Shown: positions 9,297 through 64,000 of the stretch, piece after piece | Layout of the letters: each line of letters opens with the position of its first letter | How positions within the stretch are numbered: position 1 is the first letter of the stretch | Source: a virus | Taxonomy: Duplodnaviria > Caudoviricetes | Virus record (IMG/VR): IMGVR_UViG_3300032312_001822 | Span: 26,596-90,595 of that record | DNA: 64,000 nucleotides | Reading direction: 5' to 3' (one strand) | The notes under the pieces: model-generated | What the model was told of the DNA's origin: nothing | The model's input: only the letters and a program-made list of their open reading frames with translations | The model's database searches: none | Position numbers and translations under genes: made by a program

Positions 9297-9322
9297 AATC
9301 CTCACCCACTATATAAAAAATG

Positions 9323-9352
9323 TTTGGCTCCCGTAGGGAGCCTTCATATATT
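9323..9352 (+). promoter_or_regulatory. Early promoter, Bacteroidetes sigma-A type (representative of the copies outside the main array)
   Basis: (T/C)TTG/TTAG-N19-20-TATATT with a conserved GGCT..TTC(G/A) core. The -33 box starts at 8797, 9323, 10028, 11709, 13664, 23056, 24954, 47055, 60159, 61541 and 63862, each just upstream of an ORF start. Confidence 0.85.
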
Positions 9353-9372
9353 TAAGTATTAAAATAAAAGTT

Positions 9373-9795
9373 ATGTTATACCAAGTATCAAATGAATGGA
9401 AATGTGGGTTTATGGAAGATTTTATAGCCTACTCTAAAGGTGGTTATACAATAGATTCACCCCAAACTAAAATATCTATTGTAAAAGTATTCAAATACAA
9501 AATTGAATCAAGACAAACACCTGGTATAGCTAACATAAAAGGTAAAAAATTTATAACACCAGGTTGGATACCATGTCATCCAAACACTGAGTTGAGTGAT
9601 ATTACTTGGATACAAAAAGTATCAAAACAAGAACAAGTAAAGGAAATTGATACATGGAGATTCAAATCATCAAGTGGTGATGGTGAGTATGTTACTAAAC
9701 GAAATGGTTTTAAATATACTTGTAACTGTCCTGGGTTTTGGAGAGCTAAAGATAGAGAATGTAAGCATATTAAAGAAGTAAAATCATATAAGTAA
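9373..9795 (+). CDS. SWIM zinc-finger protein
   Basis: YTCNCPGF....RECKHI. Confidence 0.75.
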   Translation: MLYQVSNEWKCGFMEDFIAYSKGGYTIDSPQTKISIVKVFKYKIESRQTPGIANIKGKKFITPGWIPCHPNTELSDITWIQKVSKQEQVKEIDTWRFKSSSGDGEYVTKRNGFKYTCNCPGFWRAKDRECKHIKEVKSYK

Positions 9796-9800
9796 TATTT

Positions 9801-10031
9801 ATGAGTATGATAACAACTGAGTACATACATAAATTTATTGACCATACTATTATAAAGTATGTTCCTGAAGGTATAGATCCTATATTACATGTTAATGCTA
9901 GAGTTGAAATTAGATCTGTTATAATGAAATTATTAAAAAACAATCAATTACCTCTAAAGTTATCTTTAATTAAATTAGTTATTATAGATTATAAAGAGAT
10001 ACTTCATGCTAAATATTCTGTATTAAATTAG
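9801..10031 (+). CDS. Hypothetical protein
   Basis: 76-aa ORF. Confidence 0.55.
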   Translation: MSMITTEYIHKFIDHTIIKYVPEGIDPILHVNARVEIRSVIMKLLKNNQLPLKLSLIKLVIIDYKEILHAKYSVLN

Positions 10032-10081
10032 GCTCCCCAAATTTGATTTCGTATATTAAGGTATAATTAAAATTAAATGTT

Positions 10082-10444
10082 ATGACTAAAGCACCAAATA
10101 GAGGAAGACCAACTGAAAATGATACTCCAATACTTCAGTACACTCAGAATTTTAAAGAATATACAGGTGAAACATTTACTTGGAATTGGGACAAAACTCG
10201 ATTCCCAAATGGACCATTAAATGTTGAAATTAAAGATCCACAATGGAGTACTTTTGATAGACTAGAAAATAAATTAGCATCATTGTTATCTCAATATGAA
10301 GTAAAAGGTAATGAACGTAAAAAACGAATTACTAAAACTGATAAATTAGAAATAGAAGCATTAGAAAGTGAAATAAATGAAATATGGTATGGTTTCTATC
10401 CTGAAGACAGGCCTAAAGTAAGAAAAAACGCTAAACTTAAATAG
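10082..10444 (+). CDS. Hypothetical early protein
   Basis: Own early promoter at 10028, GTTATG start. Confidence 0.75.
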   Translation: MTKAPNRGRPTENDTPILQYTQNFKEYTGETFTWNWDKTRFPNGPLNVEIKDPQWSTFDRLENKLASLLSQYEVKGNERKKRITKTDKLEIEALESEINEIWYGFYPEDRPKVRKNAKLK

Positions 10445-10759
10445 ATGAAGGCTAAACAACTTAAATTTAGAGACTTAGATGAACTAATGGAGTTCAATGA
10501 ACAACAAGCTCGTGACATACACCTTCATACTTTTAAATTCTTAAGATATGAATGGAATAAGAATAAAAAGTTTAGTGATATAGATCTTTTCAATATAGAC
10601 TTTGAAGGTGATATAGAATTTGATAATATAGTCTTAACTATTTACTCCACAGAGTGGATTAAGGCTTTAGAATTAGGATTAGAATATTTTGTAGAACAAG
10701 AAGAATACGAGACATGCTCTCAAATTAGAAATTTATTAATTAAAATTAAAAAGAAATGA
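10445..10759 (+). CDS. Hypothetical protein with C-terminal UVR-like motif
   Basis: ALELGLEYFVEQEEYETCSQIRNLL. Confidence 0.6.
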   Translation: MKAKQLKFRDLDELMEFNEQQARDIHLHTFKFLRYEWNKNKKFSDIDLFNIDFEGDIEFDNIVLTIYSTEWIKALELGLEYFVEQEEYETCSQIRNLLIKIKKK

Positions 10760-10962
10760 GTTATTTTCAAGCAACAGTAGAAATCCTTGACATGAGTGAA
10801 AAAGGTAAACAAACAAAAAACAGAGAGTTATATTTAGTAGATGCTGTTTCGGTAACAGATGCAGAAGTTAAAGTAACAAAAATGTTTGAAGATGAAGGTT
10901 CACAAGTAGATTTTCAAGTAAAAAGTGTTAGAGAAACAAAGATTTTACAAGTAATTGAATAA
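10756..10962 (+). CDS. DUF4494-like protein (Bacteroidetes family)
   Basis: G-K-x-x-K...E-x-YLVDAVSVTDAE-x-K pattern matches DUF4494 as recalled. Confidence 0.7.
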   Translation: MSYFQATVEILDMSEKGKQTKNRELYLVDAVSVTDAEVKVTKMFEDEGSQVDFQVKSVRETKILQVIE

Positions 10963-11010
10963 AAGCTTTTTGAAGCACACCCCATCCTTAGATACATATA
11001 TACGCCACAA

Positions 11011-11220
11011 ATGAATTACCTTTATAAACATAATGATAAATTATATTTGGTGCTTAGAAACATGCCCGAACATAATTTTAAAAATAAGGATGGGTCTTTT
11101 AATATGGAGGTTTTAAGGGCATGGCGCGATCATTTAGGTGGCGACCATGTCTTAAAACAACATGACAGATTTTTAATAGTAGAAACAATACAAGAAATAG
11201 AATATGAAACAAGTAATTAG
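11011..11220 (+). CDS. Hypothetical protein
   Basis: 69-aa ORF overlapping the thioredoxin start. Confidence 0.6.
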   Translation: MNYLYKHNDKLYLVLRNMPEHNFKNKDGSFNMEVLRAWRDHLGGDHVLKQHDRFLIVETIQEIEYETSN

Positions 11221-11455
11221 ATTTACAGCCGCTTGGTGCGGCCCATGTAAAGTATATGCCCCAACATTTGAAAGAGTGGCTAATGAGGTATCAGGAGTAC
11301 AATTTGAAACAGTAGATGTTGATTCAACAGATCCAAGAATAACTGAAATGGGTATTAGAGGAGTACCAACAACTGTGGTTTTAGAAAACGGTCAGGTTGT
11401 TAAAAAACAATCTGGGAATATGGGAGCAGAACAGTTGAAACAACTTATTGGATAA
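11204..11455 (+). CDS. Thioredoxin
   Basis: FTAAWCGPCK active site, GIRGVPT. Confidence 0.92.
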   Translation: MKQVIRFTAAWCGPCKVYAPTFERVANEVSGVQFETVDVDSTDPRITEMGIRGVPTTVVLENGQVVKKQSGNMGAEQLKQLIG

Positions 11456-11702
11456 AATTCATATGAATAAGATACAAGAAATTTTTACAGCATGGGCTAT
11501 AGCATTTGACCCAACACAAGAACAATCTGAATTAGCAAGTGAAAGAATTCAAATTTGTAATGAATGTGAATTTAAAAATACCATTCCTATCATACATTGT
11601 GGTGAGTGTGGGTGTGCTTTAAAAGCTAAAATATTTTCACCTGTTAAAGGAGCTTGTCCTAAGAGTAAATGGGATGAAGTTGATAATAAATTCTTACCGT
11701 AG
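11448..11702 (+). CDS. Cys-rich zinc-binding hypothetical protein
   Basis: RIQICNEC...CGECGC..KAK...CPKSKW. Confidence 0.7.
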   Translation: MDKIHMNKIQEIFTAWAIAFDPTQEQSELASERIQICNECEFKNTIPIIHCGECGCALKAKIFSPVKGACPKSKWDEVDNKFLP

Positions 11703-11762
11703 GAAATGTTTGGAAAACTAGAAAACACTTCGTATATTAAGGTATAAATAAAAATAAAAGTT

Positions 11763-12878
11763 ATGATATTACCAATTTTATATAAGCGTTCAAATAGTAA
11801 AGAACATATCAACCAATGGCAAATTGAAGTTGAAGGAAATAAATTTAGAACTACAACTGGGTTTGTAGGTATGAAGATGTTTACAGGTGATTGGACTGAA
11901 TGTACTCCCAAAAATATAGGTAAAAAGAATTCAACAACAGCTGAAGAACAAGCCTTATTTGAAGCTAATGCACTTCATACTAAACGTAAAGATTTAGGTT
12001 ATTGGGAAGATATAAATGACTGTGATAAGAAAGTATTCTTTCAACCTATGTTAGCTCAAGACTATGATAAGAGAAAAGACAAAATTAAATTTCCTATACT
12101 TTCTCAACCTAAATTAGATGGTATCAGATGTATTATTAAATCAGATGGTATGTGGACAAGAAATGGTAAAGAGATTATATCCGCACCTCACATATATGAA
12201 TATTTAAAACATATCTTTGATAATCAACCCGACTTAGTATTAGACGGTGAATTATATACTTCAGATAGAGATGTTGATTTTAATACTATTATTTCATGTG
12301 TTAGAAAAACAAAACCCACACAAGCTGATTTAGAAATGTCAGCTAAATATATTGAGTTTTGGGCTTATGATTTATATGATGGTGAAGATTTAACCTATGA
12401 AGATAGAAGAAATTTATTAAAAGAGTTAGAAAGTAGATATAATGTTTATTATCCTTTATACAGAGTAGTTACAACTTATCAATTGCCTGATGAAAAACAT
12501 GTTATGGAACAACTTCAACATTACATTGAACAAGGTTTTGAAGGCCAAATATTAAGAGATCCAAATACACCTTATGAAAATAAAAGATCAAATGGTTTAT
12601 TAAAACATAAAACATTTTTTGATGAGGAGTTTGATATCATTGGTTACGCTGAGGGTGTAGGTAAATTTTCAGGTAAATTAGCAACTTTAAAAGTAGATGT
12701 TAATGGGATTCAAGTTGATTGTACTATAAATGGTACAATGAGTTATTTAGAAGAATTATTTGAAATTAAAGATAGTTTAATAGGTAAAAAAGCAACTGTA
12801 AAATATTTTGAGAAAACAACTGATAATTCATTACGTTTTCCAAAAGTGATTCAAATTGATAGAAACAGTTATGAATAG
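11763..12878 (+). CDS. ATP-dependent DNA ligase
   Basis: QPMLA, QPKLDGIRC (motif I), LDGELY, FEGQILR, KRSNGLLKHK, LRFP. Confidence 0.95.
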   Translation: MILPILYKRSNSKEHINQWQIEVEGNKFRTTTGFVGMKMFTGDWTECTPKNIGKKNSTTAEEQALFEANALHTKRKDLGYWEDINDCDKKVFFQPMLAQDYDKRKDKIKFPILSQPKLDGIRCIIKSDGMWTRNGKEIISAPHIYEYLKHIFDNQPDLVLDGELYTSDRDVDFNTIISCVRKTKPTQADLEMSAKYIEFWAYDLYDGEDLTYEDRRNLLKELESRYNVYYPLYRVVTTYQLPDEKHVMEQLQHYIEQGFEGQILRDPNTPYENKRSNGLLKHKTFFDEEFDIIGYAEGVGKFSGKLATLKVDVNGIQVDCTINGTMSYLEELFEIKDSLIGKKATVKYFEKTTDNSLRFPKVIQIDRNSYE

Positions 12879-12881
12879 AAG

Positions 12882-13499
12882 ATGAAATTAGCAATAGGAT
12901 TATTTGGAATACATTATATAAATGAATTGAATCATTGGATGGGTTGGAGAAATGGAGTAGATTATAGAAAAACTTACACTAACCAATCTAATTTAATATA
13001 CTCTAAATTCCAAACTAAATATTATTCAGCTACTTATTATTCTGATATTGAAAATGAATTATTATCTAATTATAATTTTTCTAATATCTTATTTAAAGAA
13101 GTAGATAATTCATCTTCAAATCCCTTAATAAAAAGGAATACTATTTTTAAAAACACAGTTAAATTGATATTGGATAATGATAAAGATTCTGATTTAATTC
13201 TTCTAACAAGATATGATTTAGAGTTTAAAGGAGGATTTGATTTATTTAATATTGATTATAATAAAATAAATTTCCTTTGTGGAAATAGAAGTGGTAATGA
13301 TTCTGATTTAGTAGATGATAATTTTTATATAATCCCAAAATCTCTTTTAAAATATTTTTATGAAACCATAAATGAAGCACCTGAAAATGTTTCATCTCAT
13401 TTATATCATAAGTTATTTGAAGATTATAATTTTATGATAAATGAATGGTACTACAGTCATGAAAATCCTTTTTATGAAATAACAAGAATTAAATTATGA
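12882..13499 (+). CDS. Putative glycosyltransferase-like protein, distant paralog of 3503-4216
   Basis: MKLAIGLFG..., LILLTRYDL, DDNFYI. Confidence 0.45.
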   Translation: MKLAIGLFGIHYINELNHWMGWRNGVDYRKTYTNQSNLIYSKFQTKYYSATYYSDIENELLSNYNFSNILFKEVDNSSSNPLIKRNTIFKNTVKLILDNDKDSDLILLTRYDLEFKGGFDLFNIDYNKINFLCGNRSGNDSDLVDDNFYIIPKSLLKYFYETINEAPENVSSHLYHKLFEDYNFMINEWYYSHENPFYEITRIKL

Positions 13500-13702
13500 G
13501 TAGAAAACCTTATAGAAGATTTTATTGTGAAGATACATCTCCTACATTAAAATCAATAAGAACCGTCAAGAATCATGGTAAAATTAGGACAATAAATGAT
13601 TTAACTTACGAGCAAATAGGGGATGATATGCTGTATTGTTTTAAAACCTCTCGCGTTGTTAAACTTGGCTCTCTAGAATTGGATTCGTATATTAAGACAT
13701 AA
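13496..13702 (+). CDS. Hypothetical protein (the C-terminus may only run through the next promoter)
   Basis: ORF track; its last codons overlap the promoter at 13664. Confidence 0.45.
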   Translation: MSRKPYRRFYCEDTSPTLKSIRTVKNHGKIRTINDLTYEQIGDDMLYCFKTSRVVKLGSLELDSYIKT

Positions 13703-13718
13703 TTAAAATATAAAAATT

Positions 13719-13913
13719 ATGAGTAAAGAATTAAGTGAATTAAGTATAGATGAAATTAATAATAAATTAATTGAAAACTATAAAACTCAAGTTGAGATTT
13801 TAAAATCAATGGTGGCTGATAGAGATAAATTAATTTCTATGTATGAAAAACAATTACTAATTCAGGATAAACATATTGATGAAATTAATAAAATTATAAA
13901 ATCAAATTTATAA
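13719..13913 (+). CDS. Coiled-coil hypothetical protein
   Basis: Own early promoter; heptad-like sequence. Confidence 0.65.
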   Translation: MSKELSELSIDEINNKLIENYKTQVEILKSMVADRDKLISMYEKQLLIQDKHIDEINKIIKSNL

Positions 13914-13917
13914 TAAG

Positions 13918-14196
13918 ATGGAGAAAACAGGCAATCTTGAAAAACTAACTTATGACTTTAATACAGCCTCTAATTTAGAAGTTTGGATGCCTAATTTAGA
14001 TGGGTGGTATAGAGTTACAAGTAGAGAATTCAGAAGTTTTAATGGTAAGAGGAGAATTAATGGAGAAGAATATAAAGGAGTTGTATTCCATTATGGAACT
14101 AATAAAAGAGCTAACAAGTCATTAGTAGAAGCTAATAAAATAGCAAGTCATAATTACAAAAGTGTTAGGAGACCCGGAGATCAATTAGTATATTAA
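13918..14196 (+). CDS. Hypothetical protein
   Basis: 92-aa ORF. Confidence 0.65.
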   Translation: MEKTGNLEKLTYDFNTASNLEVWMPNLDGWYRVTSREFRSFNGKRRINGEEYKGVVFHYGTNKRANKSLVEANKIASHNYKSVRRPGDQLVY

Positions 14197-14218
14197 ATTA
14201 AATAAAAAATAAATATAA

Positions 14219-14416
14219 ATGGAGAAATTAGGAGCAATATTAACAGCAGTAGCATTATTAGCATTAGGTGCAATTGTATTAGCATGGCCTGTGCAATTAT
14301 TATGGAACTATTCACTTGTGGGGGCAGTAGATGGAATAAATCCAATTACATTTTGGCAAGCATTAGGAATTAATTTCTTATTCGGAATATTATTTAAAAA
14401 TTCAAGTTCAAAATAA
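14219..14416 (+). CDS. Small membrane protein
   Basis: Two hydrophobic segments; ITFWQALGINFLFGILFK. Confidence 0.7.
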   Translation: MEKLGAILTAVALLALGAIVLAWPVQLLWNYSLVGAVDGINPITFWQALGINFLFGILFKNSSSK

Positions 14417-14592
14417 TGAGTTACTATCAAGTTATATTAAAATCAGGAAAAGCACACCCGTCTCTTTATAAAACTATACCTAATGCCATTAAAAATGTAG
14501 GAGTAGAGAATATAAAGGAGATTAAAGAAATTAGATCGGAGTTAGTAGATGCTAAATACGAAGAACCAACAGGAACATCAAATATAGAATAA
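14416..14592 (+). CDS. Small hypothetical protein (58 aa, not in ORF track)
   Basis: Hand-translated MSYYQVILKSGKAHPSLYKTIPNAIKNVG...; TAATG coupling to the previous gene. Confidence 0.55.
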   Translation: MSYYQVILKSGKAHPSLYKTIPNAIKNVGVENIKEIKEIRSELVDAKYEEPTGTSNIE

Positions 14593-14593
14593 T

Positions 14594-14734
14594 ATGAGCA
14601 AAAACAGCGCCAAAACAAACTACGAACAATTAATTCAGTGGTTACCAACATTAGGACAACCTAAAGTAAAAAAAGAACAACAGTCAACTAAATTTAGTAA
14701 AGCTGATCATTACAAGAGTAAAGGGGTTAAGTAA
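14594..14734 (+). CDS. Small basic hypothetical protein (46 aa, not in ORF track)
   Basis: Hand-translated MSKNSAKTNYEQLIQWLPTLGQPKVKKEQQSTKFSKADHYKSKGVK. Confidence 0.55.
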   Translation: MSKNSAKTNYEQLIQWLPTLGQPKVKKEQQSTKFSKADHYKSKGVK

Positions 14735-14784
14735 GTTTTGCTTTTCAAATATCTTTTCGTATATTTAGGTATAAATGAAATGAA

Positions 14785-14961
14785 ATGAAAACTGTACAAT
14801 TTACCTTACAAGAAAGATGGGCTGCTTCAAAGCATATGGTTCAAAAATCTAAAAAAACTTACACTAGAAAAGATAAACATAAAAACAAGGACCATAAAGG
14901 TCCTTCTTTTATTGTAATGTTTGGCTCTCCGGGGTATGCTTCGTATATTAAATCATATTAA
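14785..14961 (+). CDS. ArfA/BrfA-like alternative ribosome-rescue peptide (58 aa as read to the stop; not in ORF track)
   Basis: MKTVQFTLQERWAASKHMVQKSKKTYTRKDKHKNKDHKGPSF...; KSKKxYxRKxKHK motif; own promoter at 14737; internal terminator. Confidence 0.6.
   Translation: MKTVQFTLQERWAASKHMVQKSKKTYTRKDKHKNKDHKGPSFIVMFGSPGYASYIKSY
14887..14912 (+). terminator. Intrinsic terminator inside the ArfA-like ORF
   Basis: AAGGACC-ataaa-GGTCCTT followed by CTTTTAT. Confidence 0.7.
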
Positions 14962-14980
14962 TAATTAAAAATAAAATGTT

Positions 14981-15718
14981 ATGACAAATCAAGAAACACA
15001 ATTAGAATTAGATTTCGGAATGTTAACAGTTGCTCAACAGGAGCGTGTTGACTCATTTATTCAAAACCAAAAAAATATTATTCAAAATAATATTAAAAAT
15101 AGTAATGCTATTGAAATATTATTAAATGAAGGTGGTTTTATTAAAGGTGTTGATTATGAAAACACTATTAAAACTAAAATTGTAACAGAAGTAAAAGAAT
15201 TTTATTGTGATGGTAATTTTAAAACTGATATTACTTATGAAACAGTAGATGGTAATATTTCAATTTTATATAAAAAATATGATTCTAGAGAAAATAAAAT
15301 TGTAACTCAAAAATCATATGTTGGTAAAGAATTAAATAAACTTCAATGTAGTTCTATCACCCCACAATATAGAGCTTACAAACCGAAATCATTATATGAA
15401 AAACTATTAGAAAATAATAGTAAAGCTCAAAATGAGTATGATAGTGCTAATCGTGAAAAAGCTGTTATTAATTATACTATTGAAAAATACAAAAATTTAT
15501 TTCCAAAAGCTGAAATTACAGTAGGTAAAGATTACTATAAAAATTATAGAAGTAATTATATTGAATTTCCAATTGTAATGGTTAAATTTGAAAGTGGTTC
15601 ATACATTAGCTTCAGAATGGGTTTTAAAATTGATGAAGAAGTTGTTTATAAAAAACATGATGCAGTTGCTTCTCAATTAAGCCCAATTGAAATATTAAAT
15701 ATTTTTAACCAACAATAA
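14981..15718 (+). CDS. Hypothetical early protein
   Basis: 245 aa; promoter at 14920; GTTATG start. Confidence 0.8.
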   Translation: MTNQETQLELDFGMLTVAQQERVDSFIQNQKNIIQNNIKNSNAIEILLNEGGFIKGVDYENTIKTKIVTEVKEFYCDGNFKTDITYETVDGNISILYKKYDSRENKIVTQKSYVGKELNKLQCSSITPQYRAYKPKSLYEKLLENNSKAQNEYDSANREKAVINYTIEKYKNLFPKAEITVGKDYYKNYRSNYIEFPIVMVKFESGSYISFRMGFKIDEEVVYKKHDAVASQLSPIEILNIFNQQ

Positions 15719-15779
15719 AGTTTGGCTCCCCTAAATTAAATTCGTATATTAAAGTATAATAATAAAAAATATAAATGTT

Positions 15780-15935
15780 ATGACACAAGTAGAAGAAGTA
15801 GTTAAAATTATTGAAAAAAATAAAAATTTAAAAACCAATGAACTAATTTGGTTACCAGAAGTAAAAAAATATAATTTACCAACTTCTACCATTTTAGTAT
15901 TAATAGAGGAAGTAAGAAAAAGTGACTTAAAGTAA
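15780..15935 (+). CDS. Small early protein (51 aa, not in track)
   Basis: MTQVEEVVKIIEKNK...; promoter at 15721; GTTATG start. Confidence 0.65.
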   Translation: MTQVEEVVKIIEKNKNLKTNELIWLPEVKKYNLPTSTILVLIEEVRKSDLK

Positions 15936-15996
15936 AGTTTGGCTCCCCTAAATTGATTTCGTATATTAAAGTATAATAATAAAAAATATAAATGTT

Positions 15997-16797
15997 ATGA
16001 CACAGTTAAAAAAATTATCAAGAGAGGAGTTAAAATCATTAGCACCTCAAGTATTCAATCATCAAGTTAGTTCTAAGTTAACTGACAAGTATGTTCACAT
16101 TCCAACTGATACTATAGTTGAAGATATGGAAAAGTTAGGTTGGTTCCCATATCAAGTGAAAACAGTTAAGGCTAGAAAATCATCAGGCGCAATGGGTAAA
16201 CACTTAATTCAGTTTTTTAATCCTGAAATTGTTATTAATAATGAAGCAGGTGAAGCTGATTTATTCCCAAATTTATTATTAATTAATTCACATGACGGTT
16301 CTACTTCAGTAAGATTTGAAATGGGAGTATTCAGATTAGTATGTGAAAATGGTTTAGTAATTAAATCAAAAGATTTTGGAGGTTTCAAAATGAGACATAT
16401 GGGTTATAATTTTGAAGATTTAAGAACCCATATTAGTTCTTTAGTTAAAACATTACCTGATGTAGTTGATAATTTGAATAAATTCTCTCAAGTAATTATG
16501 ACACCTGAGCAACAAAATGAATTTGCAAATAAGGCAATTGAAGCTAGGTTTAATGAAGAAAAAACATTACCTCAAAGTGAAATTGATTATTTATTAACAC
16601 CTGAACGTAAAGAAGATAAAGGTGACAATTTATGGGTTGTACTAAATCGTGTACAAGAAAAATTAACTCAAGGGGGTTTTGGTTATTTAAACGCCAAGGG
16701 TAAATTAAGAAAAACAAGAGCTGTTAAAAACTTTACAATGGATACTGAAATGAATATGAAGTTATGGGAAATTGCTGAAGAGTATTTAGTTAACTAA
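15997..16797 (+). CDS. DUF932/DUF945-family protein
   Basis: APQVF..S.KY.HIPT, LLLINSHDGS, GVFRLVCENGL, LWVVLNRVQE. Confidence 0.85.
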   Translation: MTQLKKLSREELKSLAPQVFNHQVSSKLTDKYVHIPTDTIVEDMEKLGWFPYQVKTVKARKSSGAMGKHLIQFFNPEIVINNEAGEADLFPNLLLINSHDGSTSVRFEMGVFRLVCENGLVIKSKDFGGFKMRHMGYNFEDLRTHISSLVKTLPDVVDNLNKFSQVIMTPEQQNEFANKAIEARFNEEKTLPQSEIDYLLTPERKEDKGDNLWVVLNRVQEKLTQGGFGYLNAKGKLRKTRAVKNFTMDTEMNMKLWEIAEEYLVN

Positions 16798-16858
16798 AAT
16801 TAAGGGGAGCTTGGCTCCCCTAATATAAAATCGTATATTAAGTTAAATAAGATAAAAA

Positions 16859-17017
16859 ATGGAAATAATTGTATTACAATTTTCTTTATGTGGGTTAAAT
16901 TTATTCGCGGCCAAAGCAACAAAAGATAGAGGTAGAAACCCAGCTTTTAGTTACTTTGTAGCAGGAATGACTTTTGGTTTTGGGGTTGCAAGATTAATTG
17001 AATTACTATTAAAATAA
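16859..17017 (+). CDS. Small membrane protein (52 aa, not in track)
   Basis: MEIIVLQFSLCGLNLFAAK...FSYFVAGMTFGFGVARLIELLLK; promoter at 16810. Confidence 0.6.
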   Translation: MEIIVLQFSLCGLNLFAAKATKDRGRNPAFSYFVAGMTFGFGVARLIELLLK

Positions 17018-17022
17018 ATAAG

Positions 17023-17211
17023 ATGACATTAACCCCAATTCAAAAATTAAGAGAAGATATTAGAAGCTTTGATTCAGGTTTGTACTTAGGAGTATTATCT
17101 TTATTAGTTGAAGCAGAAGGTCAAGAGAAAGTATTCTTGGAAAAAGTTTATAACGAACCCAAAACAACTGAGTTTGAAGAATATTATAAACAGTTTGGAA
17201 AACCTAAATAG
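17023..17211 (+). CDS. Hypothetical early protein
   Basis: 62-aa ORF. Confidence 0.55.
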   Translation: MTLTPIQKLREDIRSFDSGLYLGVLSLLVEAEGQEKVFLEKVYNEPKTTEFEEYYKQFGKPK

Positions 17212-17251
17212 GATTCGTATATTAAAGTATAATAATTAAAAATAGAGAGTT

Positions 17252-17440
17252 ATGATATTACAAGTAATTAATACTAAAAAGGAAAAGTTCAATCAAATTA
17301 GAACAACTAAAGAAAATTTATTTGCTGATTTAAAATTTCAAGGTTGGCATGTACAAGATTGCAAAATAAGTGAATTAAAAGAAGAATTAGTTCACACATT
17401 GTACAGAAGTGCAGATGGTAAAAACACTAGTACAAGATAA
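17252..17440 (+). CDS. Hypothetical early protein
   Basis: Promoter at 17194; GTTATG start. Confidence 0.7.
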   Translation: MILQVINTKKEKFNQIRTTKENLFADLKFQGWHVQDCKISELKEELVHTLYRSADGKNTSTR

Positions 17441-17448
17441 AAACAAAG

Positions 17449-17550
17449 AGTCAGGAGTCCATTGGTTGGAAGCACCTCCCCAAGGTTAAGTAACATTAAG
17501 GCTGACTTTTAATGGCAAAGCTGGAGTAGGTTCAAATCCTACCCTGACTT
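17449..17550 (+). ncRNA. tRNA-like RNA (degenerate or atypical tRNA)
   Basis: Perfect 7-bp acceptor stem AGTCAGG/CCTGACT; T-arm GTAGG-TTCAAAT-CCTAC; D-arm TCC-ATTGGTT-GGA; weak anticodon arm; 37-nt extra arm; no encoded CCA. Confidence 0.65.
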
Positions 17551-17551
17551 C

Positions 17552-17589
17552 TAATAAATGCCTCATAACCATTTATTATTTTTAATTAT
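17552..17589 (+). ncRNA. Anti-start-codon hairpin, copy 1
   Basis: TAATAAATG-cctcataac-CATTTATTA followed by TTTTTAATTAT; reverse complement of the early leader. Confidence 0.6.
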
Positions 17590-17597
17590 CGAAAAAG

Positions 17598-17623
17598 AGC
17601 CTAACAGAAATGTTAGGCTTTTT
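17598..17623 (+). terminator. Intrinsic terminator overlapping the next promoter
   Basis: AGCCTAACA-gaaa-TGTTAGGCT followed by TTTT. Confidence 0.8.
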
Positions 17624-17668
17624 GGGTTTAACTTCGTATATTAGGGCATAATTAAAAATTAATATGTT

Positions 17669-17944
17669 ATGAAAAACGAGAAAGTAGGTTACAGTAGAGA
17701 AGCAATGATTAAGTTTCTAAAAATTGAAGGTGTTTATGTTATTGGAACAACTGAAGAATTTTCAGGTCAAGAAGGTGGAATTTGGGTTGGGGGTGAAGAA
17801 ATGGATGATTTATTTGAATATTATAATAATAGTTCTAAATTCACATTTGGAGTAGAGAAAAAATTAAACGAAGCTGTTAATAAAAGAGGGTGGTGGTTTA
17901 GTTGGAATGATCCGGGTACAATGATGGTGTGGCCAATTAATTAA
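17669..17944 (+). CDS. Hypothetical early protein
   Basis: Promoter at 17613; GTTATG start. Confidence 0.75.
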   Translation: MKNEKVGYSREAMIKFLKIEGVYVIGTTEEFSGQEGGIWVGGEEMDDLFEYYNNSSKFTFGVEKKLNEAVNKRGWWFSWNDPGTMMVWPIN

Positions 17945-18001
17945 AATTTGGCCCCCCTAAATTGAATTCGTATATTAAAGTATAATTAAAAATTAAATGT
18001 T

Positions 18002-18214
18002 ATGAAAATTATTAAAGTTACAAGTTTATCTGATAAAAAATCAGTTTATCTAAATGTTGAAGCCATAGGACACTTTTACACAGTGCCTGAAAAAAGAGAT
18101 TATGGTAGAGTTGAAAAAGTAGAACATACTAGAATTGGAGTTACAACCCACAATAATGGAGGGTTTGAAATAACTGAAACCCCTGAAATGTTAATTAAAC
18201 TAATTAATAATTAA
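18002..18214 (+). CDS. Hypothetical early protein
   Basis: Promoter at 17947; GTTATG start. Confidence 0.75.
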   Translation: MKIIKVTSLSDKKSVYLNVEAIGHFYTVPEKRDYGRVEKVEHTRIGVTTHNNGGFEITETPEMLIKLINN

Positions 18215-18270
18215 TTGGCTTCTAAATATTAAATTCGTATATTATAGTATAATTAAAAATATAAAAAGTT

Positions 18271-19026
18271 ATGAAAAACATTGAAACATTAAATCAGGAA
18301 ATTGTAAAGTTAGAAGAACAAAAAACAAATTTCTTAAATTTAGAACAAGATTTAAAAGATGCAAGATCTAATATCTATGTTAGAGAACAACAAGCATTGA
18401 GTGATTCTTTATTACCATTTTTTGAAAATTTTAAATATGGTGTTAATATTGAAGTTAAAAGAGACTCTATTTATTTTAAAACTGATCACCCTGATTACAC
18501 TTATCAAAAAGAATTATTTAGTATTTATTTAAGAGAAAGATACTCAAGTGAGGGTAAAAAATATGATGGGGCTGATTTATCTTATTACACAACTTCTACT
18601 AAAGGAGAAAATACTTGGGAGTTAAAAAGATTACAATTATTAGGAAGAGTAGCTGAAATTTTAGAAGACCAACAAGGACTTATTGTTGATACAGCTAATG
18701 ATGTTTCAAATAAATTCAAAGAAGAATTTAATGAAGTTTATGGTAAAATGGGTGTTGTTGGAAATTCTATTAGAGACTTAAATAACCAAATTAGAGAAAT
18801 CCAAAAACAAGTAAAAAGAATTGAATTATTTGGAGAAGGAATCCAATTTGAAAAATCAAGATGCATTACTTTGAAACATAATTATGAACCAAGAGTTGTA
18901 TCTTTAAAATTAATTGAAGTTTCTAAATCAGGTAAAAAAGCAACTGCTGTATTTGAGTGGGAGAAAGGAAGAGAATCAAGAGAAGAAGGTGTAAATGTTG
19001 AAAAAATCATTTACCAAGTTATATAA
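18271..19026 (+). CDS. Hypothetical early protein with coiled-coil segments
   Basis: 251 aa; promoter at 18214. Confidence 0.8.
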   Translation: MKNIETLNQEIVKLEEQKTNFLNLEQDLKDARSNIYVREQQALSDSLLPFFENFKYGVNIEVKRDSIYFKTDHPDYTYQKELFSIYLRERYSSEGKKYDGADLSYYTTSTKGENTWELKRLQLLGRVAEILEDQQGLIVDTANDVSNKFKEEFNEVYGKMGVVGNSIRDLNNQIREIQKQVKRIELFGEGIQFEKSRCITLKHNYEPRVVSLKLIEVSKSGKKATAVFEWEKGRESREEGVNVEKIIYQVI

Positions 19027-19057
19027 GTGCCTCATAACCACTTATTATTTTAATTAT
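19023..19057 (+). ncRNA. Anti-start-codon hairpin, copy 2
   Basis: ATAAGTG-cctcataac-CACTTAT followed by TATTTTAATTAT; the A-T pair of copy 1 is G-C here. Confidence 0.6.
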
Positions 19058-19065
19058 ATTTTGTT

Positions 19066-19088
19066 AAAGCTCCTTATTAAGGGGCTTT
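19066..19088 (+). terminator. Terminator-like hairpin overlapping the next promoter
   Basis: AAAGCTCCTT-att-AAGGGGCTTT. Confidence 0.6.
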
Positions 19089-19141
19089 GGCTTTCTAAAT
19101 TATAATTCGTATATTTAAGTATAATTAAAAAATAAAATGTT

Positions 19142-19378
19142 ATGATGAGTTTTAAATTGCAAGATGAAGCAAATGGGTCTTTTAAAATATTTGATTTAAG
19201 ACAAGCTATAGGTAGAGAATTTAGTGATAATCACTCTCCAACTTTAAGGAGTAAATTATTAGAAGTAAGTGATTGTGGGAATGTTTGTACTGTAATTAGT
19301 GTAGAAGCCTATAATAAACAAGGGGGTAAAGTAAGTAAACAACCTTCTTATTTAACTTGGAATGCCTTATTTTATTAA
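19142..19378 (+). CDS. Hypothetical early protein
   Basis: Promoter at 19086; GTTATG start. Confidence 0.7.
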   Translation: MMSFKLQDEANGSFKIFDLRQAIGREFSDNHSPTLRSKLLEVSDCGNVCTVISVEAYNKQGGKVSKQPSYLTWNALFY

Positions 19379-19435
19379 AATTTGGCTTTTATAGGTCAGC
19401 TTCGTATATTAAAGTATAATTAAAAATTAAATGTT

Positions 19436-19561
19436 ATGAAAAAAATAGTATTGTTAGGAGTTATTTATTGGGAAGTAGAAATTGGAGGGGTAACTCATAT
19501 GTCATTCAACCCTCAAGAATTAGTTGTAAAAATGGCCTCAATGGGTTTAAGTTTAAATTAA
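19436..19561 (+). CDS. Small early protein (41 aa, not in track)
   Basis: MKKIVLLGVIYWEVEIGG...; promoter at 19381. Confidence 0.55.
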   Translation: MKKIVLLGVIYWEVEIGGVTHMSFNPQELVVKMASMGLSLN

Positions 19562-19573
19562 AAATATAAAGTT

Positions 19574-19792
19574 ATGAGTTTACATTCAGTTTACATATGT
19601 GAAGATTTTGAAATTGGTAATGGTATTTTAACTATTTGGGATGCCAAAGAAGTAGCTAAGGTAAAAGATATAGATGGTTTTAATAGAATTAATGAAATTC
19701 TAATTTCTGAAACGGGAGTATTACCTAATGGAATTATATGTCCTAATTTATTTCATAATTCTGGATTTTTTGATATTATACTTTTTGAATAA
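19574..19792 (+). CDS. Hypothetical early protein
   Basis: AAAGTTATG start. Confidence 0.65.
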   Translation: MSLHSVYICEDFEIGNGILTIWDAKEVAKVKDIDGFNRINEILISETGVLPNGIICPNLFHNSGFFDIILFE

Positions 19793-19849
19793 TATTTGGC
19801 TTTTATAAGTCAGCTTCGTATATTAGGGTATAATTAAAAATATAAAGTT

Positions 19850-20152
19850 ATGACAAAGAAAGAAAGATTAAGATTAAATACAGTTCATGTAATTGAAATG
19901 GTACAAAAGAATTTTGAAGTAAGTACTGATTTTTGTGATGATGAAGGTCATGGTTATTTTACTTTTGGGGTAATGAAAGATGGAGTAGAATACTTATTTG
20001 ATTTAAGTAGAAGAGATTTTAGTGTTATTATCCATAAAATAAGAGGTGAAAAAGATTATGAAATTGGAGCTGATTTGGAGGCTGAATTAGAAAGATTTAT
20101 TTTCTTAGAATTAGAAATTTCAAACGCCCGTATTGATAATATGATTAAATAA
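19850..20152 (+). CDS. Hypothetical early protein
   Basis: Promoter at 19795. Confidence 0.75.
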   Translation: MTKKERLRLNTVHVIEMVQKNFEVSTDFCDDEGHGYFTFGVMKDGVEYLFDLSRRDFSVIIHKIRGEKDYEIGADLEAELERFIFLELEISNARIDNMIK

Positions 20153-20217
20153 TATAATTTGGCTTTATTAAATTAAATTCGTATATTATAGTATAATAAT
20201 TAAAAATATAAAATGTT

Positions 20218-20583
20218 ATGGCAACAAGATCAAGAATCGGAATCGAAAATGAAAATGGTACAATTAGTTCAATTTATTGTCATGGGGATGGTTACCCAGA
20301 TGGTGTAGGGGCAACTTTAGAAGAACATTACTCCAATAGACAAAAATTAAGAATGTTAATCAATTTAGGTGACATTAGTATTTTAGGAGAACATGTAGCA
20401 ACAATGGATGAACACTCTTTTGATAATAGAAAAGAAGGTGTTACAGTAGCTTACCATAGAGATAGAGGTGAAGAAAAACGAGAAGCAAGAGAAGATAGCT
20501 CATTAGATTCATTTTTAAAATCCGGATATGAACAATATGGTTATGTTTATACTAAGGATGAAAAATGGGTAATGTTTGAATAA
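20218..20583 (+). CDS. Conserved phage early protein (MATRSRIG...YCHxDGYP family)
   Basis: Family motif recognised; promoter at 20158. Confidence 0.8.
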   Translation: MATRSRIGIENENGTISSIYCHGDGYPDGVGATLEEHYSNRQKLRMLINLGDISILGEHVATMDEHSFDNRKEGVTVAYHRDRGEEKREAREDSSLDSFLKSGYEQYGYVYTKDEKWVMFE

Positions 20584-20589
20584 TAAAAA

Positions 20590-20610
20590 GGGGCTTCGGC
20601 CCCCATATTA
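20590..20610 (+). terminator. Terminator-like hairpin
   Basis: GGGGC-ttcg-GCCCC with an AU-rich tail. Confidence 0.7.
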
Positions 20611-20665
20611 TTTGGCTCCTATATATATATTTCGTATATTATAGTATAATTAAAAATATAGAGTT

Positions 20666-20839
20666 ATGACACAAGAAGAAATGAATACCGAAAATGCTTT
20701 AGTAAATGAGAAATATGAAGTGATTAGAAAATTAGATGCTTACTTACATATTGAGTCTTTTAATAGAACTAAATTAACAAGTGAAATGTTAAAGGAGTTA
20801 AGAGGTAAAATTGACGAAATGTTATTATCCGATTTTTAA
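20666..20839 (+). CDS. Small early protein (57 aa, not in track)
   Basis: MTQEEMNTENALVNEKY...; promoter at 20611. Confidence 0.65.
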   Translation: MTQEEMNTENALVNEKYEVIRKLDAYLHIESFNRTKLTSEMLKELRGKIDEMLLSDF

Positions 20840-20898
20840 TATTTGGCTTTTAAGATTATTATTCGTATATTAAGGTATAATTAAAAAGATAAATTGTT

Positions 20899-21120
20899 AT
20901 GAAAGTAAAAGATTTAATTAAGTTTTTAAGTGAACAAGATCAAAATTTAGAAGTAGTTATTAAATATATTGATCCTTCAAATTGGAATTATGAATTACCT
21001 TTAAGAGCTCAAGATGTTTATGTGGACGAAGTATTTGAGGTGGATGAAGCTAATTTAGAAGAGGGTCAATCTATTGAATCAGGGGATGAGTGTTTGGTAA
21101 TTGAATTAAGTTTTGAATAA
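20899..21120 (+). CDS. Acidic early protein
   Basis: MKVKDLIKFLSEQDQNLEVVI; promoter at 20842. Confidence 0.75.
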   Translation: MKVKDLIKFLSEQDQNLEVVIKYIDPSNWNYELPLRAQDVYVDEVFEVDEANLEEGQSIESGDECLVIELSFE

Positions 21121-21126
21121 CATATT

Positions 21127-21231
21127 ATGAAAGAGAAATTATATATTGTTGATGGATTTGAAATATGGGCGGATAGTGAAGCCGGGGCTATTGAAAAATA
21201 TAGATTATGGTGTTTACCATGTTGGGATTAA
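21127..21231 (+). CDS. Tiny ORF (34 aa, not in track)
   Basis: MKEKLYIVDGFEIWADSEAGAIEKYRLWCLPCWD. Confidence 0.45.
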   Translation: MKEKLYIVDGFEIWADSEAGAIEKYRLWCLPCWD

Positions 21232-21291
21232 TATTTGGCTTTTAAAATTATATTTCGTATATTATAGTATAATAATTAAAAATAATATGTT

Positions 21292-21468
21292 ATGGAAAGT
21301 AGATTTGGTATTGAATTAGAGGTATTAGAAAAAGCATTACAAAATATGATCAGTGAAGGTTATATGGGTAAAGATGATACAATTGAAGATTTAGAAGATT
21401 TAGCTTATACATCTTGTGAAGGATTAGCTTGGTACGCCAAATCTAAAATATATGATTGGGCAAATTAA
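21292..21468 (+). CDS. Small acidic early protein (58 aa, not in track)
   Basis: MESRFGIELEVLEKALQ...; promoter at 21234. Confidence 0.65.
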   Translation: MESRFGIELEVLEKALQNMISEGYMGKDDTIEDLEDLAYTSCEGLAWYAKSKIYDWAN

Positions 21469-21527
21469 TATTTGGCCTTTAAAAATATTATTCGTATATT
21501 AAGGTATAATTAAAAAGATAAATTGTT

Positions 21528-21695
21528 ATGGAAAATCAAGTTACAGAATTAGAGTTAATGTTCATTAGGTTAGAAAGATTAGAATTACAATTAGTGGAAA
21601 ACGATGTAATAGAAGATGGAGACATGATAAGTGAAGCATTGGGTGAATTGAAAGAGAGATTGTATGACAAAATAAGAGAAGTGAGCAACGAATAA
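21528..21695 (+). CDS. Small acidic early protein (55 aa, not in track)
   Basis: MENQVTELELMFIRLERLE...; promoter at 21471. Confidence 0.65.
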   Translation: MENQVTELELMFIRLERLELQLVENDVIEDGDMISEALGELKERLYDKIREVSNE

Positions 21696-21705
21696 AATTC
21701 AGTAT

Positions 21706-21813
21706 ATGAAACCAATAATATTCTATCATACGGAGAAAGAGACATGGGTAAAAGTAGATGAAATACTCACCGGGGAAACGATCATTTCCTCACCCGTTTC
21801 ACCCCTCACATAA
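21706..21813 (+). CDS. Tiny ORF (35 aa)
   Basis: MKPIIFYHTEKETWVKVDEILTGE... Confidence 0.35.
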   Translation: MKPIIFYHTEKETWVKVDEILTGETIISSPVSPLT

Positions 21814-22160
21814 TGTGACAAATTGGAATTAATATACCCTAACAAGTAATGGGATATGGATATTGGGATATAGGGATAGTATAGTATGTGGAAAATAGAT
21901 TATATGGGATGTGGAGATACTAGGGCAGGGTACGTGACTTCATTGAGGTGGAAGGCCAAGCCTTACTCGAACAGAGGAGTATATACCTTACCCTAAATAA
22001 TGTTTTAAAACGCTGATTATACCCTGAAAAATAAATGTTAAAATGTTTGGCTTAGTTAAAAAGGTTTTATAAATTAAATTAAAAAAGGGTTTTAAACGCT
22101 GCCATGTTGTGAACCTAAAGTAGACGCGGCCCCACTCCCCCGGGGCCCCTACTTAAATTT
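21814..22160. other. Non-coding G-skewed/GC-rich tract
   Basis: GGGATA-like repeats at 21851, 21865, 21873 and 21906; GTTTTAAA(A)CGCTG at 22002 and 22089; GGCCCC-N8-GGGGCC hairpin at 22128-22147. Confidence 0.6.
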
Positions 22161-22219
22161 TGTTTGGCTATTGGAAAATTGCTTCGTATATTATAGCATA
22201 ATTAAAAAAATAAAACGTT

Positions 22220-22507
22220 ATGACAAAGCAAGAATTTTTATCGGGTAAGTGTTTTACAATTGGGGCTCCGACTTATAAGGGTGCTAACACCTATAGCTAT
22301 TATAAAAGTGATAGGAATGAGGGTTGTATAATGAGACAATCAAGATCATCATTAGACAATAGAATAGTATTAAATGATTATGAGTGTAACGCTCCAACAG
22401 TGGGGTCAAAATCGTTTACTGGATTTACTTACGTAATGAAAAAGAAAGTAGTGGTTAAATACAGGTTTGAGGACCTAATATTGTTTGAGGAAACTGTAGG
22501 GGAGTAA
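22220..22507 (+). CDS. Hypothetical early protein
   Basis: Promoter at 22163; GTTATG start. Confidence 0.7.
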   Translation: MTKQEFLSGKCFTIGAPTYKGANTYSYYKSDRNEGCIMRQSRSSLDNRIVLNDYECNAPTVGSKSFTGFTYVMKKKVVVKYRFEDLILFEETVGE

Positions 22508-22541
22508 ATCCCCTGCATAGTTATAGAGAAAATCTATAGCA

Positions 22542-22775
22542 ATGAACATAACTAAACAACTAAGTGGGTTAAGCACCCGTCTAAACGAATTACTTGAGGA
22601 TATGGACCGAATAATGGACTATATCGATAATGACGAATTATATAACGAGATAGACAATAATGTCAAATCTCAGCTGGAAAACGCAGTTACGCACCTAGAT
22701 ATCGCAGTTGACGACCTTAATGACGGAATGTATGAAGATACGCCCGTGGACGAAGAAGATTTAGATTGGGATTAG
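22542..22775 (+). CDS. Highly acidic small protein
   Basis: 77 aa, Asp/Glu-rich, helical; locally more C/G-ending codons. Confidence 0.6.
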   Translation: MNITKQLSGLSTRLNELLEDMDRIMDYIDNDELYNEIDNNVKSQLENAVTHLDIAVDDLNDGMYEDTPVDEEDLDWD

Positions 22776-23116
22776 AAAAGAATGATTTTGTATCCTTACA
22801 GTTCGGACCCGTTCGGTAATGGATTAAAAACGTATAGCCACGCGTCGTTGCTGTCCATCGACGGATCCGCGGGATCACAGGACAAGATTATGGTGATAAG
22901 AGATCGAAAACACTCTTTACCCAACCCCCTTGTATATACAAATATATATGAGTTTCAAATAACCCCTTTGATATAAGATTCATAAGGGTTAAAAAAAGAG
23001 ATCTTAAAAAGATTTTACCAAATAAAAAAGTATATACAAAATAAATGGGGAGTGGTTTGGCTTCCCAATTTCTGTTTCGTATATTGTTACATAATAATAA
23101 TAAAAACAAATAGGTT

Positions 23117-23782
23117 ATGTTAAAATTAAAAAATCTTTTCTTAGTAATTCTTTTAGGAATTAGTTTTATCTCATGTACTCCAGAAGACATAAGAGATAAT
23201 TGCCCATGTGTAGATGGAAATTGTGACGCATCATTTTATATAGATGTAATACAAAATCCAGGTTCGTATCAAGATGCTCAGGGTGTATGGCATGTTAAAT
23301 GGTCAGGTTTACATTACTTTAGAATTAAAGGTCAAACAGATCAATTAGATCCAGAGTATGTAGTAAATGGAGTGCCATTAATTGAAACGGGTTATGATTC
23401 AAATTTCTTTTACACACCATCAGGTATTACATGGACGTTTCCATTATATTCATATTTAGGAGTTTTTTCCAATAATAACTTAACAAATCCAATTCCAATA
23501 GGTAATGGTACATATACTTTACCTCAAATAGTAGGTGACACTAGTGTTTCTAATTTAGCCGGGTATGAGATTAACAGGTACTTCAACTTTAATCACCCGG
23601 CTGCGAAAACAATGCTCCAAACTTACTCTAAATACAATTATAATCCAGTTCAACAAATGCCTTTTCATCAGGGTATGATTGGTAAAACAGCTGATATATA
23701 CATTCGAGTTTTATTTAATTCTGATTTTTCGGGTCCCACTCAGGAGCGTTTATATAAATTAACTGTTAAATTTGAGCAATAA
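23117..23782 (+). CDS. Putative lipoprotein
   Basis: Signal MLKLKNLFLVILLGISFIS-C with lipobox; early promoter at 23056. Confidence 0.75.
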   Translation: MLKLKNLFLVILLGISFISCTPEDIRDNCPCVDGNCDASFYIDVIQNPGSYQDAQGVWHVKWSGLHYFRIKGQTDQLDPEYVVNGVPLIETGYDSNFFYTPSGITWTFPLYSYLGVFSNNNLTNPIPIGNGTYTLPQIVGDTSVSNLAGYEINRYFNFNHPAAKTMLQTYSKYNYNPVQQMPFHQGMIGKTADIYIRVLFNSDFSGPTQERLYKLTVKFEQ

Positions 23783-24408
23783 TGTCTGAGGTAATTTCAA
23801 TTCATAAAGCACTTATATTAGAAGCTCGTTCTGATATAGAGATTTACGCTACTAATAGAGTTTCATCTCCTCTAAATAAACTTCCTAATTTTAGTATTTG
23901 GAAAAACAATTGGGATGAATTAGCTTCACGTTACCATAAAATTCCTTCTCATAAATTAGCTTCATTTGTTAATTTTGATTATACTATTGAATATAAATTT
24001 AAAGAGGAAGGTGAGGAAGGTACTGTTTCTTGGGTATATATGTATGGCAAGACGCGTGCGGGTAGGGAACAGCTTGATCGTTCTTTTACTAAAGGAAAAT
24101 ATGTATACGTATTAACCAATATAGCTTACCCCGGAGTTTGCAAAATAGGAAAAGCTGTTAATCCACAAGAAAGAATAAAACAAATTAATAACGCAGGAGT
24201 GGTTTCCGAATGGGAGCTAAAGTATGCCTTACCTGTTAGTGATGATTTTTTAGTTGAAAATTTAGTTCATCAAGAATTAGCTACTTTAAGATTAAGTTCA
24301 CATCAAGGTTCATCTAGAGAGTTTTTTTCTGTAAGTTTAGAAGAAGCAATTTCTACTATAGAGAAAATGGGTTTTGAGTTTAGTACCAACCCACCAATTT
24401 ATTATTAA
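23782..24408 (+). CDS. GIY-YIG nuclease, T5orf172 type
   Basis: YVYVLTN..YPGVCKIGKAVNPQERIKQIN; E..VH; REFF. Confidence 0.85.
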   Translation: MSEVISIHKALILEARSDIEIYATNRVSSPLNKLPNFSIWKNNWDELASRYHKIPSHKLASFVNFDYTIEYKFKEEGEEGTVSWVYMYGKTRAGREQLDRSFTKGKYVYVLTNIAYPGVCKIGKAVNPQERIKQINNAGVVSEWELKYALPVSDDFLVENLVHQELATLRLSSHQGSSREFFSVSLEEAISTIEKMGFEFSTNPPIYY

Positions 24409-63905: not shown

Positions 63906-64000
63906 ATGACAGATGTATATCAAGAAGTAGCAAAGCAATCCAAATTGCTTATGTTAAAAGAACCATTTTATGGTTTATTTTTAATAGCTCTAAATAAGGA
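63906..64000 (+). CDS. Probable DUF2201/vWA metallopeptidase partner of MoxR, 3'-truncated
   Basis: MTDVYQEVAKQSKLLMLKEPFYGLFLIALNK; promoter at 63862; GGTTATG start. Confidence 0.6.
   Translation, partial: MTDVYQEVAKQSKLLMLKEPFYGLFLIALNK

Follow-up and report, generated by a model that had tools for sequence, protein, structure and literature searches.

The stretch of DNA that was analysed (the window; 64,000 nucleotides) belongs to a 90.6-kb viral contig that is 55% complete and in which no bS21 gene was found. By protein comparison, its 251-aa and 727-aa proteins match those of the Flavobacterium phages vB_FspM_immuto (Immutovirus; host Flavobacterium sp. LMO8), and by sequence the source of the window is an Immutovirus-like phage, the nearest isolate being Flavobacterium phage immuto_2-6A. 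Part of the window is occupied by an array of cassettes (Table 1) whose promoters resemble the -33/-7 consensus of Bacteroidota (TTTG / TANNTTTG; PMC6847099), a type of host to which a sigma-70 promoter scan is ill-suited. The predicted start site was placed 3-5 nt past the -7 box, with +1 uncertain by 1-2 nt. These promoter-led cassettes are presumed to be early on the basis of their host-type promoter. Genome-wide, GTTATG starts are found in 21 of 28 promoter-led genes and in 6 of 116 others. The first-pass annotation had counted about 24 such starts in the window, and the same total was obtained (23 ORFs, and the ORF at 63906 that runs off the end); it had also reported that late genes lack them, which is true of all four starts that it quoted (7004, 27221, 30413 and 48996). 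Its claim that all early genes are targeted was too broad, the match being limited to about 75% of promoter-led genes (21/28); the predicted targets are approximately 20 unrelated small-ORF cassettes.

Table 1. Features of the cassette array and of the two anti-leader elements in the window
Feature	Position	Strand	Remarks
Cassette array, ~22 promoter + leader units	9319..23119	+	-33/-7 type promoter, A-rich leader, mostly GTTATG start
Predicted target starts (examples)	10082, 14981, 15997, 18002, 19142, 19436, 19850, 20218	+	in cassette array
Predicted target starts (further examples)	20666, 20899, 21292, 21528, 22220	+	in cassette array
Promoter + leader (from ~17229) + 62-aa ORF (17252-17440)	17193..17440	+	head of copy 1 transcript
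tRNA-like cassette	17449..17550	+	7-bp acceptor stem, T-arm, aberrant anticodon region, no CCA
Copy 1 hairpin	17552..17578	+	9-bp stem, 9-nt loop 17561-17569
Copy 1 tail, single-stranded	17579..17589	+	antisense to leader nt +1 to ~+11
Terminator-like stem after copy 1	17592..17624, core 17598-17619	+	with U-tract
Promoter + leader (from ~18249) + 251-aa ORF (18271-19026)	18213..19026	+	carrier of copy 2
Copy 2 hairpin	19023..19045	+	7-bp stem, loop 19030-19038 identical to copy 1 loop
Copy 2 anti-leader tail	19046..19057	+	leader complementarity
Terminator-like or 3'-protecting stem after copy 2	19063..19091	+	overlaps next promoter's -33 element

Within the array lie two copies of an element composed of a hairpin and a tail, both of which were confirmed with the stems and the identical 9-nt loop first described. 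As had been proposed, the copies are complementary to the leader; the match of their reverse complement runs from about +1 to AUG+1 and has two parts, the tail facing +1 to +10 and the loop facing GUUAUGA. The loop core of copy 1, UCAUAAC, is antisense to GUUAUGA at -3 to +4 of the start codon. Folding of hairpin plus tail gave z-scores of -3.9 and -2.9 for the two copies against shuffles, and the loop, the putative seed, is unpaired with a predicted probability of 0.95-1.0. Taken by itself, the loop 9-mer shows only modest enrichment (3 matches against 0.49 expected); one of these, at 50948, lies within an ORF and has neither stem nor tail. A detector requiring hairpin, tail and terminator-like stem in this order found exactly these two sites in 9001-24000; elsewhere in the window it found no site, and 30 shuffled versions of the 15-kb region likewise gave none. 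No Rfam family corresponds to the element; the C4 model (RF01695) gave no gathering-score hit in the window, and the C4 covariance model gave no hit at E up to 5 in 17380-19150. The terminators that the first-pass annotation placed after the copies are represented by a terminator-like stem at both, but that of copy 2 may leak because its U-tract is weak. The 3' arm of the stem after copy 1 also constitutes the -33 element of the following promoter. Many cassette promoters have a G+C-rich hairpin lying across their -33 element or spacer (9319-9342, 17598-17619, 19063-19091, 20588-20604), and thus terminator-like stems and promoters have sequence in common.

The two copies had been described as ending early transcripts. 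Copy 2 does follow an ORF, the stop codon of the 251-aa ORF being located within its 5' arm, but copy 1 begins 1-2 nt past a tRNA-like cassette, itself 3' of the 62-aa ORF, and not at an ORF end. This cassette was not called by ARAGORN and scored 18.8 bits with the Rfam tRNA model, below the gathering score of 29; its acceptor and T arms are intact, and it lacks a canonical cloverleaf with a 7-nt anticodon loop. It is possible, as a model, that the cassette is a processing handle that frees copy 1 as a 3' trailer of approximately 75 nt. Neither protein beside the element was informative: the 251-aa protein has no PHROG match and no PDB fold match, the best fold comparison of the 62-aa protein had a Z of 3.5, and neither result is evidence of a new fold. 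The 62-aa ORF is a frequent but non-obligatory neighbour of the element; an obligatory role as its protein partner was considered and rejected, the element lying 3.4 kb from the 62-aa ORF in L244 and L245, and tblastn found no 62-aa homologues in type II loci (defined below). In relatives of the L244 type, the tRNA-like cassette and the element are replaced after the 62-aa ORF by a noncoding stretch of 290 nt that looks structured (L244:8190-8480).

The tRNA-like cassettes of the window (17449-17550) and of related loci (L120:9160-9290; L234:5935-6225; L240:8200-8470; L244:4450-4805; L252:4470-4585) have a common frame of acceptor stem, D-arm and T-arm, with a hypervariable anticodon region that is different in nearly every relative. 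They occur singly or as two or three in tandem, few are called by ARAGORN, and they are possibly processing handles or decoys.

Relatives were gathered by protein and not by motif, and the conservation count took in 37 distinct related early-region loci, each with at least 8 leaders; the phages form a family of large freshwater Flavobacterium phages in which most presumed early genes begin with one common short leader. The element is present in all 37 loci, in 21 only behind the 251-aa gene, in 9 only elsewhere, and in 7 at both kinds of position. Its positions are interchangeable (behind tRNA-like cassettes or ORF ends), always ahead of a terminator-like stem, and since it is located elsewhere in nine loci that have the 251-aa gene, this gene is independent of the element in cis. 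In a prospective check, loci fetched via the 62-aa protein contained the element in 13 of 14 cases, the fourteenth being truncated upstream, where close relatives have it. The cultured phage immuto_2-6A has 16 sense leaders, no minus-strand leaders, and one type II antisense copy at 72,098, behind immuto26A_136. A scan of GTDB gave 25 matches, none with an anti-leader tail or cassette leaders, so that no cellular or prophage copy was found. A search of viral contigs with a short loop-only pattern was abandoned, nearly all its hits being chance matches without stem or tail.

Copies that resemble those of the window (type I; 32 distinct) have the loop YYUCAUAAC, in which the first two bases vary freely and the core changes only to CAUAAU or CAUAGC, both of which retain pairing through G-U; such wobble-compatible changes are weak evidence, because 5 of 7 possible transitions would be tolerated. 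Within 60 nt upstream of 17 of the 32 there is a T-arm, and the others end an ORF. The 3'-UTR origin first proposed therefore holds for about half of the copies, while the other half are 3' trailers of tRNA-like cassettes. The compensatory stem change noted between the window copies is borne out by relatives, in which pairing is retained and one stem position is G-C, A-U or U-A depending on the genome, L252 having a G-U intermediate; the stem covariation score, which rests on this single covarying pair, was reached by 2 of 500 shuffles, and two genomes (L199 and L201) have a stem mismatch. Homologues were expected to keep both stem pairing and a CATAAC loop; the pairing is kept, but the loop is replaced in other clades. 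In three loci the hairpin and anti-leader tail are in tandem, the second copy having a different loop (L215:6220-6300; L155:1464-1560; L171:1720-1760), and in L171 an additional hairpin is inserted ahead of the tail.

The type of element varies together with the leaders across clades, although this co-variation rests on two or three related clades and is not statistically independent. Leaders with GTTATG make up 62-100% (median 78%) in genomes with CATAAC loops, compared to 0-60% (median 17%) in genomes with other hairpins. In type II genomes, leaders start with ATCAATAATTAAAAC or ATTAATAATTAAAAC and have variable ends, and the element has a different, strongly compensated hairpin and a longer tail that is the exact complement of the first 14-15 leader nt. 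Where leaders start with ATCAATAATTAAAAC, the tail is a perfect complement in 26 of 36 cases, and a G in the type II tail can read both C (189) and U (80) at leader +3. The match ends at the predicted start site: TAGGT precedes 231 of 269 leaders, but only 1 of 33 tails runs on into its complement, AC. In the window's clade, the complement often reaches 2-4 nt upstream of the predicted start site, into the promoter. Type II tails end approximately 10 nt short of the AUG. The type IIa hairpin carries a ACACUUUA loop without a clear target. In the type IIb subclade (GUUGUUA loop), AACAAC is present in 30-60% of leaders, compared to 0-17% in others, and the loop is a 7/7 complement of TAACAAC, located before the ATG of the subclade's own 251-aa family gene. 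In L188, where ATTATG is as frequent as GTTATG, the type I loop is altered to CAUAAU on a long tail, and the element is predicted to prefer the second leader class. What is universal in the element is its tail, complementary to leader nt +1 to +10/15, and the anti-AUG loop is clade-specific; the view of GUUAUG as the shared target thus applies to the loops of GTTATG-rich clades only. The type II hairpin overprints the final 8-10 codons of genes for the 251-aa protein family (IVQHTLAE) with many compensatory changes (L123:10725-10800; L212:10735-10810; immuto_2-6A, ~72,065-72,150), and in L179 it persists behind an earlier stop.

Binding to six fully folded leaders was predicted at -9 to -15 kcal/mol, the duplexes being AU-rich and modest. 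Because the element was chosen for its complementarity, energy comparisons within the window are partly circular, and weight was placed on tests across genomes. In predicted cross-binding, cognate leaders were favoured for all type I elements (-8.7 to -11.8 kcal/mol, other leaders -6.2 to -10.0) and all type II elements (-5.8 to -11.3 kcal/mol, other leaders -4.2 to -5.4). Start regions of Bacteroidota hosts (n=86) are predicted to bind at a mean of -3.8 compared to -9.1 for phage cassettes, so that the phage's own cassettes are the likelier targets. Among all leaders, an element's own and next leaders are not favoured (quantile 0.31-0.56 of predicted binding). When whole transcripts were folded, however, 20-22 nt of the own leader paired with the element and the AUG was buried (P 0.97-1.0), and in read-through folds the next leader was paired (P 0.77-0.99). 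Sequestration of the next cassette's start, which had been suggested, is accordingly predicted, but fold-back on the transcript's own 5' end is predicted equally strongly.

On sequence evidence, the element probably gives rise to an anti-leader RNA that acts in trans to block the translation of early mRNAs and that cannot avoid folding back in cis on the mRNA carrying it. Rather more tentatively, at somewhat less than an even chance, a single self-made antisense RNA would switch down the early class with its stereotyped leader, as an RNA timer of the early-to-late change. We infer the transcription, processing, in vivo pairing, repression and timing of the element from sequence as follows. The module of seed hairpin, single-stranded anti-leader tail and terminator-like stem would be transcribed from an early-type promoter. 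Copy 1 would be released as the 3' trailer of the tRNA-like cassette by tRNA 3' processing (RNase Z acts on CCA-less tRNA precursors), and copy 2 would act from an mRNA 3' end. In trans, the RNA would pair with the stereotyped 5' leader that the host-polymerase-driven, presumably early mRNAs have in common, nucleating at loop or tail and then spreading over the leader from +1 to the AUG; it would also fold back on its own mRNA. The duplex over this interval would block initiation by Bacteroidota ribosomes, because initiation in Flavobacterium depends on an unstructured, A-rich, SD-less start region; in F. johnsoniae, structure in the start region modulates initiation (PMC6847099). The anti-leader RNA would itself be early and probably more stable than mRNA, and would therefore accumulate, with delayed, class-wide damping of early translation.

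That the element acts in cis only, folding on its own 5' leader or on the next cassette in read-through RNA, so that one gene (encoding the 251-aa or the 62-aa protein) would be expressed only in a burst during its transcription, is unlikely. The whole-transcript folds, in which leader-element pairing buries the own AUG, agree with such a function, and type II elements have kept to the 3' end of genes of the 251-aa family despite protein divergence of approximately 50%; the match of the type IIb loop to its carrier gene points the same way, but in IIb genomes AACAAC is frequent in the remaining leaders as well. Nine loci have the 251-aa gene with no adjacent element and the element elsewhere, upstream neighbours vary, own and next leaders bind no better than other leaders, and the 17 of 32 type I copies that trail tRNA-like cassettes (up to three) would be detached from ORFs by processing. 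Changing neighbours, at least one copy per early region, and the middle rank of own and next leaders form a pattern that fits a diffusible RNA, and the predicted cis effects are likely to be side products.

A role in superinfection exclusion or a carrier state, in which the stable RNA would silence the first transcripts of an incoming phage with the same leader type, is quite improbable. Predicted binding is clade-specific, and the c4 heteroimmunity of P1/P7 (PMC12197685) is a precedent; against this, no integrase or repressor is annotated in immuto_2-6A, and self-repression would follow anyway, because the RNA cannot distinguish resident from incoming mRNAs. It is more doubtful still that pairing is non-repressive, the RNA capping the mRNA 5' end against decay or guiding nuclease cuts (e.g. 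by RNase III), which would separate read-through transcripts at each internal promoter. Such functions would suit a universal tail whose end lies near +1, type II tails that stop short of the AUG, and a complement that, in the window's clade, enters promoter sequence found only in read-through RNA. Type I loops, however, cover the AUG itself, the duplexes are short and interrupted, and leader +1 to +15 includes an A-rich stretch near -12/-13 that is tied to Flavobacterium initiation (PMC6847099). The least probable explanation places the element at the DNA level, as an inverted promoter-leader remnant kept by gene conversion, an inverted operator for a phage regulator, or the leader of a minus-strand mini-ORF: the element probably did arise by inversion of a leader, as its sequence suggests, some tails reach promoter positions -1 to -4, and both window copies open minus-strand ORFs (MRHL..., 26 and 19 codons) with a synonymous His codon change, but there is no -7 box upstream on the minus strand, every TTCGTATATT-type box being on the + strand, conversion would be expected to carry this best-conserved promoter box, which is absent, type II elements have no minus-strand ATG, and a compensated stem and fixed order of hairpin, tail and terminator are features of RNA. 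The minus-strand gene that the first-pass annotation had named as an alternative was likewise not upheld, there being no minus-strand promoter and no conserved minus-strand ORF.

Among known systems, c4 RNA is processed from a longer early transcript by tRNA-processing enzymes. Together with the CI RNA of satellite phage P4, it is the closest to the trans-acting anti-leader RNA proposed here; the c4 antisense RNA (P1/P7, RF01695) is likewise phage-encoded and trans-acting, its loop-borne seeds pairing near a ribosome binding site so that translation is blocked (PMC12197685). However, c4 acts on one operon (icd/ant) in the maintenance of lysogeny, whereas the element would act on approximately 20 cassettes through the leader common to them, has in addition a tail directed at the mRNA 5' end, and corresponds to no Rfam family; a c4-type icd/ant antirepressor target is lacking, and no antirepressor is annotated in immuto_2-6A. 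To our knowledge, early-gene shut-off in lytic phages is known mostly through proteins. In T4, the translational repressor RegA and the endonuclease RegB down-regulate many early mRNAs via a shared feature of the initiation region; these are proteins that act on AU-rich AUG regions or on GGAG in the SD, whereas the regulator proposed here is an RNA, and its host initiates without SD sequences. In type I toxin mRNAs (hok, with its fbi-tac, and aapA), a 3' sequence is complementary to the mRNA's own 5' end. Both carrier transcripts of the window are similarly predicted to pair with their own 5' leader and bury the AUG, but the complement of the element suits an entire class of genes, and the module, which changes place between genes and tRNA-like cassettes, is not fixed on one mRNA, the own leader being unfavoured and the element lying away from the gene in 9 loci.

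In Cluster K mycobacteriophages, the SAS/ESAS motif is repeated at the start sites of a subset of genes and has been proposed as a site for an unidentified RNA or protein (PMC3203893); it is unrelated in sequence and host, and no partner RNA has been described, in contrast to the co-varying antisense partner in the genomes considered here, which is of the kind that the SAS proposal would call for. Lambda PreS, OOP and VP882 VpdS are phage small RNAs that act by base pairing (10.1101/2024.10.31.621285). OOP is antisense in cis to a single mRNA, PreS has mostly host mRNAs as its targets and works through Hfq, and none of the three is reported to act on a shared phage leader, unlike the element. 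No description of such an element was found in the literature searched, which did not take in the list of 10,000 viral RNA candidates of PMC10690425. If the proposal is correct, an antisense RNA acting on an entire gene class would add a new layer of regulation, doing with RNA, in a host that initiates without SD sequences, what RegA and RegB do in T4; it would also explain why cassette arrays keep nearly identical leaders as well as promoters. The element is testable because the cultured phage immuto_2-6A, with its host Flavobacterium sp. LMO8, carries the type II form and 16 leaders. The pair of leader and anti-leader could also serve as a small genetic part for silencing genes in Bacteroidota, in which designs that rely on SD sequences fail.

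Several other features of the window were noted. Genes for an ATP-dependent DNA ligase (11763-12878) and a DUF932-family protein (15997-16797) both have GTTATG starts, as do, without the full leader, those for a DNA primase (47273-48208) and an ATPase (61597-62781), to the starts of which predicted binding of copy 1 is weaker (-10.8 and -7.0 kcal/mol, respectively). The cassette array has gaps without ORFs at 21700-22150 (approximately 450 nt) and 22980-23050 (approximately 70 nt), and relatives have gaps at similar places; an Rfam scan of the window found no RNA gene in either gap. The promoter-leader blocks 15716-15800 and 15933-16017 are duplicates, 92% identical, ahead of unrelated ORFs, which suggests that cassettes are shuffled via recombination at repeats. 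Finally, a ATATTTATA motif recurs approximately 5-25 nt 5' of presumed late and structural genes (upstream of 7004, 27221, 30413, 33227, 40435, 46310, 48996 and 53523) and is likely to be a late promoter.
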